NCBI GenBank assembly: GCA_964016885.1
Contig: OZ024743.1
Location: 346,394,001-346,458,000 of the forward strand
Source of the DNA: Eledone cirrhosa
Lineage: Eukaryota
Direction of reading: 5' to 3'
DNA: 64,000 bases
A program made the translations under genes and the position numbers. Below the pieces are notes generated by a model. That model saw only the letters and a program-made list of their open reading frames with translations. It was not told where the DNA came from and did no database searches. How positions within the stretch are numbered: position 1 is the stretch's first letter; every line of letters begins with the position of its first letter. Below are positions 2,901-54,375 of this stretch, piece by piece.

Positions 2901-3779
2901 CTAGGGTGATTACGTAAATTTTTAAGTGTTATTTCAACTAAACATTATTTAATCTCATGTATGTAGCACATACTTATAGGTACACACATACGGACATACG
3001 TGCGCGTACACATATATACACATGGGCACAAATACGTACGCATGGAAGCACACATAAGTGCACATACAGTCATATTTATATACGAGATGGAAACCGCTTG
3101 GTGACACTGACAATATTGCAAAATTTATAAAAGATAATTGTTTAAACTCGTCACAAGCACTGGAACGGGTATATAAGGGCATGGTTGTATATAGACAATA
3201 CAGAAGTATTAGTATCACCGAGACAACCACTCCGCGGTCATAGGCTGCATAGATGGAGTTATAGATTTTCAGTCCCGACCGAAAGGACAGTTGGATTATT
3301 CGGCGTCACATTGTCTACCAAGATAGTTAAACACTGTCTTGGAGTATGATAGCCGTTGAGGAATGATTTGAACATACCATACCACATTTTCGCAGTTTAT
3401 CATGCAACTTTTTTTATTTACTTCAAACATCTAATAGCAGGCTTGAGAGGCAGGTTTCATTACGAAGCTGCTGAATTGTCTGCTAGAAGAATGTATTTGC
3501 TGATGCAAAGTTAGATTTCAGCTTAACCCCAAAGCCTTTCAATGTTTAACTTTGTATGCTTTTATTGCTTCTATTGACACTTTTCGTGCCTCCTTGCACC
3601 GCAAAAGCAAAAAAAGAACGTATTTCTAAACCAACGATTGTACGCCTCCTTTCTCGCTTCCGAATGAATCATCCGATACGTAAACAAGCCGGTTTCATTC
3701 GTAGCATTTAAGAACTGAAGAAGAAACTGACTGTTCAACTAAGTTGAACAGTCTCCACTCCGTTTTAACGTCGTTAGTT

Positions 3780-6736: not shown

Positions 6737-6921
6737 GTGGATTGGCAGTATCGGTAGAGGGTCGGATGCTATGCTTTGCAGCATAGTTACGTCCCTTTAC
6801 GGACTGAGTTCAAATCCCGCCGAGGTTAGCTTTGCCTTTCATTCTTACGGGGTCGATAAAATAAAGTACCAGTAATGCACAGAGTAATTGCTGGCCTTGT
6901 GCCAAAAGTAGAAACAATTAT
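6737..6921 (+). mobile_element. tRNA-derived SINE family 1, near full length
   Basis: A box tggcagtatcgg, B box gagttcaaatcc, tail gaaacaattatt; high similarity to 46351-46540. Confidence 0.95.
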
Positions 6922-6952
6922 TTATAAACTGTCTCTCATTATATAGGATTTG

Positions 6953-8843: not shown

Positions 8844-8973
8844 AACGAAGGAGATGTGGTAAGGAACCAGGTGGACCATAACGCACCAAAGTACCCAATA
8901 CTTAGGGTAGTAGTGTGGGTAATAGGAACGAGTAAGACCCCGAAGGCCGAGCTCAAGCCGTTTCGACGGCTAA

Positions 8974-8976
<3 letters not shown>
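8844..8976 (-). mobile_element. PLE pseudo-LTR 3' fragment (family H1) carrying only the 3' half of a hammerhead, flanked by (TA)n on both sides
   Basis: Near-identical to 24444-24577; minus strand reads gccgtc-GAAA-cggcttgagctcggcc-ttc-ggggtc; stops inside the stem II strand. Confidence 0.75.
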
Positions 8977-9570: not shown

Positions 9571-9579
9571 TAAACTAAT

Positions 9580-9763
9580 AATTGTTTCTACTTTTTGGCA
9601 CAAGGCCAGCAATTTCACAGTGTATTACTGGTACTTTATTTTATCAACCCCATAAGGATGAAAGGCAAAGTTAACCTCGGCGGGATTTGAACTCAGAATG
9701 ACAAGGGCCGTAACTCTATGCGTCAAAGCATGGCGTCCGACCCTCTACCGATACTGCCAATCC
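9580..9763 (-). mobile_element. SINE family 1
   Basis: Reverse complement of the 46351 consensus, including A and B boxes. Confidence 0.95.
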
Positions 9764-10647: not shown

Positions 10648-10830
10648 TCAGAATGGAGGCGGTAAAAACCAGTTAGACCATTACTCACAAAAGTACTCGA
10701 AACTTGGGGTAGTAGAGTGGGTATATGACAAATACAGGACCTCGACGGCTGAGCTCCGGCTACTTCAACAGCTATATCCGAACTTGGATCTAGCTGTTGA
10801 AACGGCTGGAGTTCATCCGTCGGTGTCCTG
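10648..10830. mobile_element. PLE pseudo-LTR fragment (family H1, diverged) with fold-back palindrome 10735-10830
   Basis: Homologous to 24444-24645; arms caggacctcgacggctgagctc... / ...gaaacggctggagttcatccgtcggtgtcctg, centred near 10783. Confidence 0.8.
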
Positions 10831-10951
10831 ATTTCATGTATGTATTTATGTTTGTGTGTTTGTGTGTCTGTGTTTGTGTGTGTGTGCGTGTCAGCGCGTG
10901 ATTGTGTGCGCATGTATATGTTAAGATGAGTGTATAAATATATATGCATGC

Positions 10952-16319: not shown

Positions 16320-17970
16320 TTTGACTACATAGCATTAGTCTCTTAGTTGGGATTTTAAAAGCATAAAATGCTCTCTCCAGAGAGATGCTGAAAAACTACT
16401 CATCAGCAACGTAATATTACCAATCGTCAAAAAGAACCGAATCACTTTTGTAGAGGTAAATAGCCTTCGAACTGGCACCCAGTATAGATTTAGCCCAATT
16501 AGAAGTTGCCTTACGCAGGCAGCTCTTACATCATTATGAGTGAGTAATGAAACAGTTATTAGATCATTCGAATATGGATGTAATATATCTCGACTTTGCG
16601 AAGGCCTTCGACAAGGTTGATCATATAATTGTTTCTACTTTAGACACAAGGCCAGCAATTACCCAGTGCATTGCATTACTGGTACTTTATTTTATCGACC
16701 CCGTAAGGATAAAAGGCAAAGTCAACCTCGGCGGGATTTGAACTCAGATCGTAAAGGGACGTAACTATGCTGGAAAGCATGGCGTCCGACCCTCTACCGA
16801 TACTGCCAATCCATCGCCCTTGATCATATAATGATACGTCACAAACTACGTAGCTCTAGCGTAGGTGGGAAATTAGTTGATTGGCTTCATGTCTTCTTTA
16901 AAGACAGAAGCTAAAGAATTGCAGCAAAACCAAACGTCAATAACAAGTAGGCTTTCCCAGGGAACGGTCTTGGGACTACTATGGTTTGTGGTGACTATCT
17001 CAGTCATGCCCTCTGTAATACGAACAGCCTCCCTCAAAAGCAATGATTATGACAGCAAAGAAACACAGGCAGTCAAGAAACGGTCTGATGCTACTCTGTT
17101 ACAAGATGATTTAGATGTTATACAAATGGGCAAGAATGTACAATTTAATTCCGGAAACATTCACTATCAAGCCGCATACTCAAGGCCTCTACAACATAGC
17201 TACACTAGATCAGGAGGATTCGATATCCGCTAGTTGAAATAAATACGGGATCAGAGTATTAACATGAGCAACGATGCGTCATTTCATGCAGACATCACCA
17301 AAATGAGGGCAATATGCAGACGATGGCATGTTGAATTCTGAGACCGGGAATCCGTATGTGTCCTCAAGAGGTATTTCTTCTTCAGCCAACGGGACTATTG
17401 CTCTCAGCTGTGGTCGCCCCACAGTGTCAAGCAAATCACAGAACCTGAAGCAATCCAACAAAGATACATCATAAGGACAACTTTAATTAAGGAGATGAGC
17501 AACTAGGAGAGGCTGAAAACATTAAAACTCTACACCCTGAAGCAAAGACAAGAAAGATACGCAGTGATAAACGTATGAAAGATCCTGAAAAGCTAGCACT
17601 AAAGTTCGGCATTCAGAGCTGGAGCAAATCCGTAACAGGACGCCATTGCGTAGAGCCAAAGGTTTCAATGTTGGCATCAATAATAATGATCTGATACGGC
17701 AATAGCCTGGAGTTCATAGGTCACCATATCTGTATTAAGCTGCCATAAAATCTGAAAGATCTACATAGTGTGCATATAGATATTTTCAAGAAGCCTCTCG
17801 ACATTCTGGTAACAAATAAAACCATACCAAGAGATGAAGCACAAATAAGTGCAGCAGCAACAAACTCCCTCTTACATAAATCGCCTACCCATGAAGGCTA
17901 GCTATAGAAAGTGTAGCGTGTATGGCGGTGACCCTGCATGACTTCAGCCAGTTGGCTGGAACATGTACAA
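16320..17970 (+). mobile_element. CR1-type LINE, 5'-truncated RT to 3' end, interrupted by a SINE
   Basis: NMDVIYLDFAKAFDKVDH, SRLSQGTVLG, degenerate YADD (DYDSK), DYCSQLWSP; many disruptions. Confidence 0.9.
16630..16819 (-). mobile_element. SINE family 1 with 13-bp TSD
   Basis: TSD ttgatcatataat at 16617-16629 and 16820-16832; splits the CR1 RT right after AFDKVDH. Confidence 0.97.
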
Positions 17971-21102: not shown

Positions 21103-21147
<45 letters not shown>

Positions 21148-21191
21148 AAGTTAAATAAAAGTCAAATGATTAAAATTTAGCTTCGTTTATT

Positions 21192-21246
21192 ACTGCTATA
21201 TATATTTCAGTGACAGCCATCTTTGGCTGTGACCTCTTCAGGCAGT
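21192..21246 (-). ncRNA. Minimal type I hammerhead ribozyme (intact core)
   Basis: actgc-CTGAAGA-ggtcacagcc(aaagat)ggctgtcact-GAAA-tatata-TA-gcagt. Confidence 0.92.
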
Positions 21247-22435
21247 TTGAATTAGTATGGTATAGACAAGTACATATGTTGTTTAGGTGTATGATATTGT
21301 CAATACTCTGATATGCCCAGTTCCTTGCTGGGTTGTTAATTCACTGGGGAACTGGAGTCATATGAATTCAAACAAACGAATTTTCGTGTCACAGGTCCCC
21401 TTCTCCTCTCATTGGTCAGTTATTAGTGTTGTCATTGTTGGAGTTAGCTTAAAAATTGATAAAATGGTAGAAGGGACAAGGTGTTGAAGGAACAAAATCT
21501 CAAAAAATGTGTCAAACTTCCCATTGTTCAGTTCTGAGAGCATTCCTCAGTCAGAGTCTATAGAATTCTTTCTGGGGTGAGGCTCCCTGTGGTGTTTATG
21601 CCTGCTATTGTTCAGTACATTTGACCTCCACCATTATTTTGGTACTGTTGTTGTTGTAGTGGTCAGCTTATACCTTGCTGCTGCTAACAATTTAGAAGTA
21701 TTCAGTTTGTGTTTTCTCTTCATCCCACCCGCCACCATCGTAGTGGTGGTGACGGGTGGGGGGAGGGGGTTCTTTCATGTATATGAAGAAATATAAGGCA
21801 ATAAATGAAGAAAACAGAAGATAAATAAATAATATAATAAAATAAAATAATTAATATAATTTGTGTAATTTGAAAATAAATAAATAAATAGAGAATAAAG
21901 AATAAAGAGTAAATGAGAGATTGGTGAAAAAGTAATGATAATGTATATGGAGAAGTGAGAAATAATGTAGGATAAAGTGTGTGTGTGTGTGTGCTATAAC
22001 CAATCTCAAGGTCAGAATATGTTGGATAGATTGGTATGATACAAGATGTTAAGATGAGATATTCAATGTGTTTGTGTTATAATCTATCTCAACTTAAAAT
22101 AAATATAAGGTTATACAGTGAAGAGGGCAGAAAACAAATAACAAATTAATAAAGAGAAATCAAGATTTAAGATTGGAACTTTAAAGTCAGAAATCTGGTA
22201 AATTAAAAGTGTTTGTGTTATAGATGTTGGCCAGATTATTATGGCTGTGTCCGATTCTATCTCTAGGCTATCATGGTGTCTGCTCCGCCTGGGTTGTTCC
22301 CTATGGCTTGAGGGGAGTTCACAACCTAGGGTGTTGTAATTGTCCATATAGCTTGAGGGAGGTCTGGCCGAGAGGTGTTTTCATGTTCTGTAGAAGTCCC
22401 TATAGCTTGAGGGGAGTTCACATCTTCTTGTGTTG

Positions 22436-22900
22436 CTACTGTCCATATATTTTGAGAAAGGTCCCGGCTCTAAGGTGTCTGCATGTCCCGAAGAAGTCGG
22501 TTCTGAGGTTTATCAGGCCGCTTCCACCTCTTAGTATCTCGAGGGTCTCGTTCAGGCATAGTTTGCATATGCAAGATCCCCCTTTATCGGGTGGTACTTT
22601 CCTGATTATGTACCAGGCCAGAGAGTATGGGGTCCTGTCCAGCTTAAGCTTCCAGATCAGGTCGGAGAGAGCTGTGCTTTTCCTTTTGGCCTCCTTCTTG
22701 AATGAATGGCGATGGTTGTACCAGCGGTCCTTAAAGCTCGTTGATGTGGCTCCTATGTAGAGGTATTCGGAGTTGGGGGTTTTAACCCTACAACCGTACA
22801 CTATGTTCTTCTTGAGACATTCATTACCAAGGGGGCATGATTCGGGGTTTCTACAGTTGCAGAGGGTGGGCGGCCTCTGCGTGCTTAGATTAGGGTTCTC
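22436..22900 (-). pseudogene. PLE GIY-YIG endonuclease domain (5'-truncated ORF; CNC..CPL..C linker, tentatively Nematis-type)
   Basis: CNCRNPESCPLGNECLKKNIVYGCRVK..YIGATSTSFKDRWYNHRHSF..CKLCLNE; open reading frame but no RT. Confidence 0.92.
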
Positions 22901-23259
22901 ATTATGTGCTACATGTAGGGAGCCTCACCCCAGAAAGAATTCTATAGACTTCTGACTGAGGAATGCTCTCAGAACTGAACAATGGGAAGTTTGACACATT
23001 TTTTGATATTTTGTTCCTTCAACACCTTGTCCCTTCTACCATTTTATCAATGTTTAAGCTAACTCCAACAATGACAACACTAATAACTGACCAATGAGAG
23101 GAGAAGGGGACCTGTGACACGAAAATTCGTTTGTTTGAATTCATATGACTCCAGTTCCCCAGTGAATTAACAACCCAGCAAGGAACTGGGCATATCAGAG
23201 TATTGACAATATCATACACCTAAACAACATATGTACTTGTCTATACCATACTAATTCAA

Positions 23260-23314
23260 ACTGCCTGAAGAGGTCACAGCCAAAGATGGCTGTCACTGAA
23301 ATATATATAGCAGT
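23260..23314 (+). ncRNA. Minimal type I hammerhead ribozyme (intact core)
   Basis: Identical inverted copy of 21192-21246; stem I actgc/gcagt, palindromic stem III atatatat. Confidence 0.92.
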
Positions 23315-23455
23315 AATAAACGAAGCTAAATTTTAATCATTTGACTTTTATTTAACTTTATTTTACACTACTCCGGAGTAACCAAACCAACCTGCGCACT
23401 TCGTCGAGTGCTCCAGCCTGCATACTGAGGTGTTGGTATACAACCAACATAAACT

Positions 23456-24263: not shown

Positions 24264-24440
24264 CTGTTTCTACTTTAGGCACAAGGCCAGCAATTACCCA
24301 GTGCATTACTGGTACTTTATTTTATCGACCCCGTAAAGATGAAATGCAAAGTCAACCTCGGCGGGATTTGAACTCAGATCGTAAAGGGACGTAACTATGC
24401 TGGAAAGCATGGCGTCCGACCCTCTACCGATACTGCCAAT
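24264..24440 (-). mobile_element. SINE family 1, 5' end abutting the H1 element
   Basis: Near-identical to 16630-16819. Confidence 0.95.
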
Positions 24441-24443
24441 ATA

Positions 24444-24645
24444 TAACGAAGGAAATGTGGTAAGGAACCAGGTGGACCATAACGCACCAAAGTACTCAAT
24501 ACTTCGGGTAGTAGAGTGGGTAATAGGAACGAGTAGGACCCCGACAGCTGAGCTCAAGCCGTTTCGACGGCTAATTCTAGACTGAGTCCAGAATTAGCCG
24601 TCGAAACGGCTTGAGCTCAGCCGTCGGGGTCCTACTCGTTCCTAT
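24444..24645. mobile_element. PLE pseudo-LTR fragment (family H1) with 61-bp fold-back palindrome centred at 24584
   Basis: Arms 24523-24583 / 24585-24645 with 2 mismatches; the plus arm has GAAA(24603)-cggct tgagctc agccg-TC-ggggtc. Confidence 0.9.
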
Positions 24646-24668
24646 ATATATATATATATATATATATA

Positions 24669-24755
24669 TACTAGCTGGCCCCATGCAAAAAATGACAGCT
24701 AATTGTAATATCTATACATAATTTAAAAACGAGATATTTGTCTGTTGGTTGGTCA
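24669..24755 (-). mobile_element. Helitron-like 3' end fragment
   Basis: actagctggcccc is the reverse complement of the 21090-21103 terminus; ttggttgg repeat. Confidence 0.55.
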
Positions 24756-40578: not shown

Positions 40579-40862
40579 CAATGGAGTGTAACGTAAAGTT
40601 ACGGTAGGTTCACCAAGGTGAGCACTCGATGTTTAGATTCATGCCTGTAACGCGGTGTTACAGTGTTAGAGCTTAACAGAGTGTAAATATTATAATACAA
40701 GGACGATATGTTATGTCTTCATTACGTTTATTAGTTGGTGACGCGCGTTTCGCTATTGATCAGCTCAAGGTTCGATCTGAATCGAATAGCGAAACGCGCG
40801 TCACCAATCAATAAACTTAATGAAGACATGATAAATCGTCCTTCTATTATTAGATTTATATA
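40577..40862. mobile_element. PLE pseudo-LTR fragment (family H3) with fold-back palindrome 40682-40860
   Basis: Both arms read gc-GAAA-cgcgcg-TC-accaa; joined through gctatt...aatagc. Confidence 0.85.
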
Positions 40863-41943: not shown

Positions 41944-42260
41944 ACGGGGTCGATAAAATAAAGTACCAGTAATGCACTGGCTAAATGCTGGCCTTGTGCC
42001 AGAAGTAGAAACAATTATTATGAAATGACTCCGGAATAAACAGATGTACTTGTATACTTCTTTGAGTGCACTATCCTGCTTACAATAGTTGTTTCTACTT
42101 TTGGCACAAGGCCAGCAATTACTCAGTGCATTACTGGTCCTTTATTTTATCGACCCCGTAAGGAGGAAAGGCAAACTTAACATTTGGCGGGATTTGAACT
42201 CAGAACATAGAAACGTAACGATGCTAGAAAGCATGGCGTTCGACTGTCTACCGATACTGC
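41944..42260. mobile_element. Two SINE family 1 copies, tail-to-tail (41944-42020 +, 42086-42260 -)
   Basis: Direct match to the family consensus. Confidence 0.9.
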
Positions 42261-42329
42261 GAATAGCGTCAGTTACATATTTAATTATATATATATATAT
42301 ATTGTTATACTTGGGGAGGGTCATATATA

Positions 42330-42714
<385 letters not shown>

Positions 42715-42763
<49 letters not shown>

Positions 42764-44041
42764 AGGGTTAAAATACTGGAGTGTGTTAGAGTTAAACACC
42801 CTCTTCGTATTATAGAAATGACAGTAAAAGGTATAGCTCAATGTAGTTAAACAGAGCCGAAAAATTAACAGAGTAAAACAAAGAAGCCTTCAATACATCA
42901 AAAGTCTTTATTAGCCGACAATGTTTCGTCCTATTAAGGACTCATCAGGGCAATTAAAACAACAAGAAGTAATATCGGCAGATACAAGCCGGAAGCTCCG
43001 AAGAATATGGAGTGTACATACACTGAAGTATTACAAAAATATATAATAAAAATATATGATAAAAATTACTAAGGATGTATATAACACTAAGAACCATATT
43101 ACAAATATAGTCCAAAGCAAAAACTAGAGCTAAACAAAGGTGGTTATATAGAGCAGGAATTATATATAATACAATATAACATACTATAATATACCTTTAC
43201 CAACATTAAAATTACAATAAAAATCAAAAGATACAATATGCATATGTATATATGTGCGCACACGTACACACACACATACACATACAACAATACACACATC
43301 CATCCTCAACTGCACAAATTAAACCTTATTAAGAATTTGAATATATAAATAAGCATGATAGGAATGAAAATAATAATAATAATAATACTAATACATCTAC
43401 CCAATATACATGAGGTAATAATATGATATAATTATAAGTAGTACATAGGTAATAATATGATATAATTATAAGTAACACATATAATAATAAATAATACAAT
43501 TATATACTATATAATACAATATAATAGAATAGATAATCTCCGGTTAATTTACACAAACAATATAGATGTCACAATAATAATATAATAATAATATTTACAA
43601 TATACAATATACTAACATTCTAAATGTACTCAAGTTAACAAGTCAATTCATACTGGGTTGCAGAGTAGGTGAGGAAAAATAAAATGTACAATACCTCAAA
43701 AGAATTTTGATGATACAGAAGTACAAACATCTTACAAGATATATAAGGTTTAACATATCATAATGTTACATATAATTAACGGTAAGTAATAAGGATCAAT
43801 ATTACAATAAAAAATACAATATAATATAATATAATATATAAAATAAAATTAATACAATATAATATAATTACTTATAATTACAAGGTTGGTAGACAGACAT
43901 GTACATGGATGAGTGAGTAAGTGCCAGACAGTAAATATAATCATATATCGGCTCTGTTTAACTACATTGAGCTATACCTTTTACTGTCATTTCTATAATA
44001 CGAAGAGGGTGTTTAACTCTAACACACTCCAGTATTTTAAC

Positions 44042-44081
<40 letters not shown>

Positions 44082-44690: not shown

Positions 44691-44692
<2 letters not shown>

Positions 44693-44842
44693 ATATAGAA
44701 ATGGCTTCTACAGGACTAGAACTGTTTCACTCGAAGGAAACTGTTCTCGTCCTGTAGAAGATATTTCTCTATTAAATATTTATACTCTGCTATGTATAGA
44801 GTACCTTAATTACTGTGGTTACTCCTGATTGATCCCGGGATA
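44691..44842. mobile_element. PLE pseudo-LTR fragment (family H4) with fold-back palindrome 44691-44774
   Basis: The arms read GAAA-cagttctagtcctg-TA-gaag (one arm slightly diverged); an unfolded relative with CTGATGA is at 61463-61520. Confidence 0.8.
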
Positions 44843-45544: not shown

Positions 45545-46350
45545 AGATAGATATATGTGTGTGTGTGTATAAAATCGTGATTTCTGACTGTCGAGTCATC
45601 GATACACTGTCAGATAACCAACAGTGAGTTCAGAAGTTTATATCTTTTTACAGACACTCCCATATATATTTACGTCTAATTGTAAATAGATATTAGTATC
45701 ATAGTAGTGAAATTTGGAATGATCGTATTACTCAGTGGACTACCTAAAAATATACCATCTCTCATTTGGAGCAACCTATCCTCGGTCACTCAAACTGCTA
45801 GATATAGCAGCCACATATCCTTCAACCCACAAGATATTCTGTTTAAAACATAGACACGGTAGATTATTTTTTCTAACAAAGGCATCGATCTAATAATTTG
45901 TTGGGGTCGTTTAGGCAATTACATTTTCGCCAGTATATGACTAGTACTTTATTATCGAGTTTAGATTTGGACTCAGCACACAGTGAGCCGAAATCAATTG
46001 AGCTTGGTCATTTGTCTGACACCTTCTATCGCATCTACACCCTCGTCAATTTAGATAATGTAATCAAAGGTTTTTTTTCCAAAGCTGTACATATATCAGC
46101 ATTAATAGTTTCCAACTGAACAGAAATGTGTAAATTGGTTTGTATAGGATTGTTATCTCTTAGCAAAAGGAGGAGATTAAGGAGTTGATACTCATTTACA
46201 CACACTTGCATTCATTCAGCTATTCACTCATTCATCATCGGGATTTAAAATAACGATGTGGTTGTAGTAGTGGTGTTCTCGCATACCGAGTAACTTATGC
46301 ATTTCAACCTAGTGTAGCCAATCCCTCTCATTATTTGACAATAGACAAAA

Positions 46351-46540
46351 GGCGGTGGATTGGCAGTATCGGTAGAGGGTCGGACGCCATGCTTTCCAGC
46401 ATAGTTACGTCCCTTTACGATCTGAGTTCAAATGCCGCCGAGGTTGACTTTGCCTTTCATCCTTACGGTGGTCGATAAAATAAAGTACCAGTAATACACT
46501 GGGTAATTGCTGGCCTTGTGCCTAAAGTAGAAACAATTAT
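46351..46540 (+). mobile_element. Full-length SINE family 1 with 17-bp TSD
   Basis: A box tggcagtatcgg, B box gagttcaaatgcc; TSD attatttgacaatagac at 46330-46346 and 46536-46552. Confidence 0.97.
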
Positions 46541-46733
46541 TTGACAATAGACTATTACTTCCAGAGAACTAATGGAGAGAGTTAAAGAACTTTCGATAAA
46601 AGAATTGACTCCAACATTGACGTAGTTTATTCATCGACCTCTAACACACACTCACATACTAACAATTGCATCATCAGTGCAGAGATAATTTTCATCAACA
46701 CCTCAACCACCGACACTTACATCAACGTCATCG

Positions 46734-53220: not shown

Positions 53221-53362
53221 ATCAGTTCGGATCGAGCTGTCGAAACGGCAAGAGCTCAGCCGTCGGGGTCCTGAATTTGTTCATATTACCCACTATACTA
53301 CCCCCAGTATGGAGTACTCTGATGCGTTATGGTCCACCTGGTATCTTACCACACCCACTTTG

Positions 53363-53364
<2 letters not shown>
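53221..53364 (+). mobile_element. Family H1 fragment beginning at the stem II apex
   Basis: tcagttcggatcgagctgtc-GAAA-cggcaagagctcagccg-TC-ggggtc..., tail into (TA)n. Confidence 0.8.
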
Positions 53365-53434
<70 letters not shown>

Positions 53435-54137: not shown

Positions 54138-54375
54138 AAAAAAGGAATGATAGGTGATACATGTAGTTATTTGCCAAATAGCGTATGCAGAAGGTGCTCA
54201 ATACTAGTGCCGGCAATATTATATATTAGAAGTGTTAATATCTAGTGGGCGAGAGAGTTAGCAGAGCGTAAGCACGTGGAAAAGTAAGAAATCGGAGAAC
54301 AGACCGTTAATACATGTTTATTTTAAATAAACATATATTAACGGTCTGTTCTCCGATTTCTTACTTTTCCACATG
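54134..54375. mobile_element. Microsatellite-flanked fragment (family H5) with fold-back palindrome 54273-54375
   Basis: 51-bp arms centred at 54324 with 2 mismatches; the arms read TAAA-catg-TA-ttaacgg (HHR-half-like). Confidence 0.75.

Follow-up and report, generated by a model that had tools for sequence, protein, structure and literature searches.

What builds a palindrome in which two 3' halves of a hammerhead ribozyme stand back to back? The question is raised by a 202-bp unit at positions 24444-24645 of a 64,000-nt stretch of the Eledone cirrhosa genome (hereafter, the window). A first-pass annotation had explained the unit by a cDNA of a Penelope-like element (PLE) that snaps back on the stem II hairpin of the ribozyme and copies itself. 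The analysis described here leads to another answer: the unit is probably a minimal head-to-head insertion of a PLE of the Hydra clade, for which the 5' leader of a capped sense RNA would have been copied onto both cut ends of a (TA)n target.

The palindromic unit and its copies

The palindrome itself spans 24524-24645, with G24584 as its axis and 60-bp arms that match at 95.7% over 117 bp in BLAST and differ at two positions by eye; an 80-nt extension is found on the left side only. On each strand, the arms comprise GAAAC, stem III, GUC and the 3' strand of stem I. In the short arm, the hammerhead 3' half occupies 24603-24630 (plus strand), as judged from the parent fold and pair counts, and the equivalent of the cut lies after 24625; in the long arm, it occupies 24538-24565 (minus strand), with the cut equivalent after 24543. 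Reading both strands of 24524-24645 bore out that two such halves are placed back to back. CUGANGA is absent from both strands of the unit, which thus lacks the combination of core, GAAA and three stems expected of an active hammerhead, and no hammerhead was found at 24444-24645 among the Rfam matches listed (150 of 225), the sole hammerhead among them being a below-threshold match at 42910-42954. The single long arm with its tail and the TA at both ends were also described correctly, the left flank being a short AATATA and the right one a (TA)n tract at 24646-24670, with a target duplication that is not definable.

The central hairpin exists as well, but two letters had been dropped from it (the actual centre reads ...attct A gact G agtc C agaatt...), and its identification as stem II did not hold: it consists of the 3' strand of stem II plus six loop letters, paired with their own inverted copy. 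The original observation therefore stands for the palindrome, half motifs, one-sided tail and TA ends, and fails for the stem II identity and for the design supposed to be common to several families. RNA of the unit is predicted to fold into a single 61-bp hairpin (-138.2 kcal/mol, z = -18; none of 200 shuffles equal), and trans-cleavage of a whole transcribed palindrome appears unlikely in this model, as the cut sites would be buried in the helix.

Further copies of the family in the window include a long arm alone, set in (TA)n, at 8845-8976 (minus strand; BLAST), which ends at +7 in the numbering of the parent given below. An older subfamily is represented by a decayed two-arm palindrome of like design at 10661-10834, 74-80% identical to other copies, and by a long arm alone at 53224-53365 (plus strand), which starts at an initiator-like TCAGTT, the homologous site in alignment A1. 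The palindrome at 10735, in which the first-pass annotation saw the design again, belongs to this older subfamily. The unit at 24444-24645 is adjoined by a dispersed repeat of ~180 bp (24265-24440) with at least seven copies in the window, further ones being located by BLAST at 805-916, 6737-6923, 9577-9763, 16621-16821, 42084-42264 and 46348-46544. A 58-bp palindrome (93%) at 79-136 is without relative among 71 surveyed palindromes.

Searches with exact patterns returned at least 9,105 short head-to-head junctions and 37,277 arm motifs genome-wide, which places about half of the arms in such palindromes. Among 2,618 candidates of the unit in G000, the 40 that were scored are full length and 96-100% identical, and the 30 best copies all have TA on both sides within flanks that differ among them. 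A set of 56 head-to-head pairs in genome order, drawn from the first 100 arm motifs on contig C1 and the first 15 junction loci, combines one long end (+141) with one short end (+61) in 54 cases; the same holds for 20 of 20 tail-selected and nine of 10 position-sampled pairs. The centres are variable, also within one subfamily: a hand count of the first 50 junctions gave about 31 kinds, the commonest of which occurs six times. Since centres differ between junctions, each of these short insertions (stubs) was likely built when it was inserted.

In contigs of run X1, depth rises about 20-fold at position 3050 of the parent locus L189, and loose contig ends, which recur in independent runs, occur at L189:3109 and L189:3189, observations that are confined to run contigs, the kind of run being unrecorded and the source sample possibly included. 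The ends at 3189 run into (TA)n. The earlier suggestion that priming takes place in (TA)n is supported. Run X5 (organism B) yielded a 60-nt contig with a depth of 1.9 that matches L189:3059-3088 on both strands. This contig, the 9,105 separate sites, their differing flanks and the fixed long and short ends make an assembly artefact unlikely. A non-LTR retrozyme was rejected as well, given that the unit is a single head-to-head structure with half motifs and not a tandem array of full type I hammerhead monomers. The unpaired 80-nt tail on one arm and the variable interior exclude a MITE or other DNA transposon. At L169:1500-2050, three short arms lie head to tail with microsatellite between them and no adjoining long arm.

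The parent element and its ribozyme

Some copies continue 5' into a 495-bp pseudo-LTR (pLTR), and 5,111 such read-through arms were found genome-wide. The intact locus L189 consists of an inverted pLTR with tail, a truncated copy, a pLTR, a 719-aa ORF and another pLTR; its direct pLTR repeats are identical at 99% over 495 bp and the tail is borne by the inverted copy, as is characteristic of the pLTRs of PLEs. The ORF contains the motifs RWR, DKT, YRDD, CxCx5C, VIY..YIG, CxxC and CxH, of which YRDD and VIY..YIG mark a reverse transcriptase (RT) with a C-terminal GIY-YIG endonuclease. It has 2,054 homologs, the best of which gives a GIY-YIG match in Pfam; Pfam and PDB scans of the L189 ORF itself yielded no hits. 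These pLTRs and the RT/GIY-YIG ORF confirm the PLE origin proposed earlier, and by its motifs L189 is an intact endonuclease-bearing (EN+) PLE of the Hydra clade, an assignment that was made by motif match to the published description, with RWR in place of the expected RWK. In the accessible text of that description, the Hydra clade is defined by DKT, an RWK-like motif, a CxCX5C linker, CxxC and CxH, absence of CCHH, and (TA)n targets (PMC8557442). The element described here shares all of these and the hammerhead in the pLTR, and differs in its stem II domain of ~54 nt and in a core that is often U3-A8 or C3-A8. Neptune elements are described in the same text as having a CX2-5CxxC linker and a CCHH motif in the endonuclease (PMC8557442); this clade was rejected, as the linker of L189 is CxCx5C and only one Cys lies between VIY and YIG. 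At L190:2094-3449, a long inverted copy with pLTRs of the present family encloses an RT fragment that clearly stems from a different PLE family, either as a nested insertion or as a chimera.

The parent pLTR carries a full hammerhead motif, in which the stem II domain of ~54 nt forms part of a three-way fold with a z-score of only -0.64. Pair counts on aligned copies back the stems and a change from C3-G8 to U3-A8: 83.9% of cells in the hammerhead stems are paired, nine pairs have changed on both sides, and none of 500 shuffles scored as high. In the 18 rows of this alignment, which are related, hand-picked and in at least 12 cases came from CUGANGA searches, the core pair is C3-G8 in 13, U3-A8 in four and another pair in one. 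Nineteen loci that were not selected for CUGANGA gave 11 U3/A8, seven C3/A8 and one G3/A8. The subfamily of the window unit mostly has C3-A8, a mismatched core, and this form is a property of an abundant, young subfamily; by subfamily, the series around L189:3006-3012 and its relatives runs through CUGAGGA, CUGAGAA, UUGAGAA and UUGAUAA. A search for CUGANGA with a gap of 4-30 nt returned 13 hits, all of them by eye chance or junction-made cores, and missed the parent owing to its long stem II and a core that is often UUGA..A. Read-through copies of the L189 type do have a core 5' of the half motif, as the first-pass annotation had demanded of a parental family; in the stubs, no core is found beyond the GAAA-GUC halves.

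Inner limits of the arms and the joining of two copies

At the inner side, 96 of the 112 arm ends in the genome-order pairs fall between -5 and +9 around L189:3049, which is taken as +1, and only two lie further 5'. This limit sits in the loop of stem II, 25-30 nt before the stem II 5' strand. Because the arms stop inside the loop, the central hairpin is a product of the inversion itself, and the claim that stem II is the inversion centre was not supported when the centres were checked. What remains of the claim is that the centre of this family lies in the stem II domain, where an inner helix is found nearby in the parent fold.

The limits are sharp at +1 and at -4. All 18 aligned copies, which represent two subfamilies, have the A at +1, in a loop that otherwise diverges; this A stands within a YYAG word that is initiator-like. 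Upstream of the L189 start lie what we take to be a TATA-like box at -29 and, presumably, a CArG-like box at -62. In the subfamily of the window, the TATA-like box is poor, and YYAG resembles a splice acceptor too, which counts against a start site. The promoter mapped in Penelope is internal and TATA-less (PMC2377424). From these sequence features, we infer that +1 and -4 are putative transcription starts of a capped pLTR RNA.

A further indication comes from a letter that is not in the parent. In read-through copies, the letter before +1 is a pyrimidine 5,111 times and G seven times (7/5,118). In 2,720 junctions where both arms reach +1, G is found on both arms in 195 and A on both in four, and the first 100 arm ends listed, counted by hand, comprise 20 with G, four with A and 76 that continue with parental letters. 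The second start at -4 shows the same extra G by eye. An extra G derived from the cap has been described at full-length L1 junctions in the accessible text of PMC11702581. The extra letter, of which G24584 in the window is one example, would fit run-off at the 5' end of a capped RNA; alternatively, an untemplated C could be added at any RNA end. About 13 of 50 listed double-G centres hold templated AGAATT inserts (hand count), and brief self-priming of finished cDNA ends does seem to occur.

These observations can be joined in the following proposal, which builds on the L189 parent with its hammerhead motif, the outer ends at +61 and +141, the inner limits, the extra G and the variable junctions. 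The PLE enzyme would cut both strands of (TA)n. The pLTR promoter would start transcription within the loop of the long stem II, so that the RNA would be without the CUGANGA half and would not be self-cut. Reverse transcription would begin internally, at +141 on one target strand and at +61 on the other, and both cDNAs would run off the RNA 5' end, often with addition of a C opposite the cap, before their ends are trimmed and joined by microhomology-type repair. For longer inverted copies, the start sites used would lie in the downstream pLTR of a read-through transcript. Applied to the window, the long arm (24444-24583, minus strand; matching L189:3049-3189) would correspond to +1 to +140 of the transcript, with priming at the distal RT start (+141), and its 80-nt tail (24444-24522, minus strand), present on this arm only, would lie between the two RT start sites. 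The short arm (24585-24645, plus strand) would cover +1 to +61, with priming at the proximal RT start, where the loose ends at L189:3109 lie, and the central G24584 (plus strand), which the parent lacks, could represent the RNA cap as copied in the short arm. The earlier assumption of an uncleaved template is supported. Arms at five loci (L034, L147, L166, L213 and L129) stop between +35 and +44, close to the ribozyme cut at +41/+42, and are possibly copies of self-cleaved RNA.

That two cDNAs were joined is indicated by the pairs in which the arms are unequal. In 16 of the 56 pairs, it is the short arm that reaches deeper in the 5' direction, by at least 10 nt, and in two pairs it is the long arm; such outreach of the short arm is not obtainable by self-copying of a tail-primed cDNA. 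At L152, L164, L134 and L041, the end of the long arm falls within the tail or at its border, and the two arms have nothing in common. The +61 end of the short arm is also used in kilobase-long inverted insertions without a central hairpin. Arms of different subfamily alleles occur at L117 and L112, and L064 and L066 are junctions of this family with the pLTR of another. Arms of different haplotype occur in 18 of 94 pairs, of which 13 differ at a single CpG site, mostly at loci chosen for their likeness to the query; as the arms almost always share subfamily alleles, one template and two are indistinguishable here. Asymmetric junctions could partly be later deletions, and at L059 one rare variant is symmetric, as expected from self-copying or conversion.

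The other palindromes pointed out in the window, at 10730-10834, 40684-40858, 44692-44773 and 54276-54372, are real (BLAST), but a centre in stem II is not common to them; a survey of 624 kb turned up 71 inverted junctions, which belong to many families. In the family of 44692 (C), with 18,373 complete hammerhead cores, TATAAATA stands in the parent 30 nt upstream of a CCAG start that is followed by CUGAUGA; of 53 truncated arms, 30 end at 0 to +6, immediately 5' of CUGAUGA, and four end in stem II. Families C, F1, F2 and E likewise have their arm ends clustered from a YYAG start on, and three of the four carry TATAAA or CATAAA at -30 to -32. F1 (20 hits) and F2 (13 hits), two small samples, both have such a box and ends from +1 onward, and no hammerhead was seen in them; in family E, nine ends lie exactly at +1, five of them with a non-genomic G. 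In the small samples of family c9 (nine hits) and the family of 54276 (G, three hits), the few ends are found 3' of the ribozyme cut, at a distance of 6-12 nt (4/5 and 2/2 truncated ends). The one read-through copy found for the 54276 family (L048) has a whole hammerhead upstream of the centre, a compact one with a U3-A8 core, this being a second family with such a variant. The single read-through copy of the 40684 family (L233) yielded no core. The window also contains a PLE fragment of another family at 21143-23363, whose inverted pLTRs (447 bp, 99%) are accompanied by a long-stem-II hammerhead around 23260-23305 and by what looks by eye like the remains of a GIY-YIG coding region (minus strand); an element set in (TA)n at 42764-44044, whose inverted ends are perfect over 97 bp and which holds a complete minimal hammerhead (42910-42954, minus strand); and a palindrome of family F1 at 42448-42661, copies of which stop sharply at an initiator-like site 30-32 nt past a TATA box, with no hammerhead seen at the centre.

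Against this background, snap-back of the cDNA on a stem II hairpin in several unrelated families, as proposed in the first-pass annotation, is highly improbable. The position of the centre and the inner helix near it would agree with such a fold, and the 44692 copy in the window does invert at TTTC/GAAA across stem II. However, the centres follow initiator-like sites rather than stem II, the arms do not extend to the 5' strand of either helix, at most one of 50 listed centres resembles the 5' inner strand of the parent by eye, family C ends in stem II in only 4/53 cases, and F1 has an equally sharp limit with no hammerhead in sight. Neither the extra G, found on both arms in so many junctions, nor the inverted copies without a hairpin and the cross-family junctions would follow from snap-back and self-copying. 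A related possibility is that a single tail-primed cDNA folds back on 1-4 nt at its run-off end, copies itself to +61 and jumps to the target. Self-priming was put forward for the palindromes at inverted PLE junctions in the accessible text of PMC3846280, the AGAATT inserts show that it can take place, and the arms are concordant in most pairs. Yet the 16 outreaching short arms, the double G, centres entirely without a loop, the +61 end of kilobase-long inverted copies, and the discordant and cross-family arms make this course quite unlikely; for another PLE, extension of both target strands has been seen in vitro (PMC11167929).

If priming was two-ended, the inner limit could instead be a processed RNA end, left by a nuclease or by splicing at YYAG, or a strong RT stop, with an untemplated G. 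All five mapped limits contain YAG, and the centres of families c9 and G suggest that processed ends are used as well; we nevertheless judge this reading unlikely, given that the arms retain the A and G of YAG and that no constant upstream exon is seen, given that three families carry a TATA box at -30 to -32, and given the G at both of two starts 4 nt apart. Hardly credible, finally, is a non-autonomous palindrome that is copied whole and whose centre is later revised by hairpin breakage: the 40 near-identical full-length copies and the recurrence of some centres could be taken that way, but centres vary within one subfamily, the recurrent ones coincide with microhomologies, and later trimming would not yield G on both arms.

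Known systems and the meaning of the stubs

In its architecture, the design noted in the window is the known PLE design in its shortest form, as inverted pLTRs, one-sided tails and junction palindromes have been published: in the accessible text on EN+ PLE insertions, an inverted, 5'-truncated pLTR, a tail on one side and a palindrome at the junction are described (PMC3846280, PMC8557442). The stubs share with these the head-to-head order, the tail at one end, the junction palindrome, (TA)n and a start within the pLTR. Unlike those described there, they contain the leader alone, have a tail of 80 nt as opposed to 30-40 nt, occur in at least 9,105 copies and have their centre at an initiator-like site with an extra G. 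The accessible part of PMC3846280 takes the self-priming template to be probably antisense and leaves the question undecided, whereas the data described here point to a sense, capped template that is primed twice.

For the Poseidon element PAc, the text available in PMC11167929 reports that, in vitro, both strands are cut and extended, that two internal RT starts define the tail and that uncut RNA is used. Two-strand cutting and extension, internal RT starts that bound the tail, uncut RNA and a predicted dimer are shared features; PAc belongs to a different clade, and the main text, as far as accessible, mentions no head-to-head junction, capping or leader-only stubs. Minimal PLE hammerheads, as presented in accessible parts of PMC4209133, likewise have the type I fold, a palindromic stem III loop and a U3-A8 core variant, and form pairs on opposite strands 100-700 bp apart, whereas the arms considered here hold the 3' half only and probably have a promoter inside stem II. 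L1 twin priming, in the accessible text of PMC11702581, resembles the proposed course in the second priming on the other target end, microhomology end-joining and the extra G; it differs in that, in the stubs, the two cDNAs overlap and a palindrome results from both running to the 5' end, and in that priming is internal and not at poly(A). The animal non-LTR retrozymes described in the available text of bioRxiv 10.64898/2026.07.22.740005 are also short, non-coding, hammerhead-related and PLE-derived, and the stubs differ from them in being not tandem, having no complete ribozyme and showing no sign of unit copying. A literature search that lay mostly outside subscription journals and covered main texts found no description of stem II or of a capped start as an inversion centre. 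What appears to be new is the evidence for a cap and a start site, together with a promoter that would be nested in stem II, all of it read from DNA.

Beyond the single unit, we lean slightly towards the more general view that mRNAs of Hydra PLEs are copied from the capped leader at both cut ends and that stubs record the transcription start and the two RT starts of each family. The origin of inverted and tandem PLE insertions is named as an open problem in the accessible text of PMC8557442. If the general view is correct, it would settle whether the template of the inverted junctions is sense or antisense. A promoter in the stem II loop would also mean that the 5' copy in the mRNA is always half a ribozyme and the downstream copy a whole one, which could separate the body of a read-through transcript from the RT start sites. 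With a cap-like G on one or both arms, the thousands of independent junctions offer a cheap and direct test. Stubs would form perfect 60-bp hairpins if transcribed, and with the 71 inverted junctions in 624 kb, stub transcripts could be a large source of dsRNA; palindromic repeats have been linked to heavy A-to-I editing (PMC5625713, accessible text). The transcription starts of PLE families would also become readable from DNA alone.
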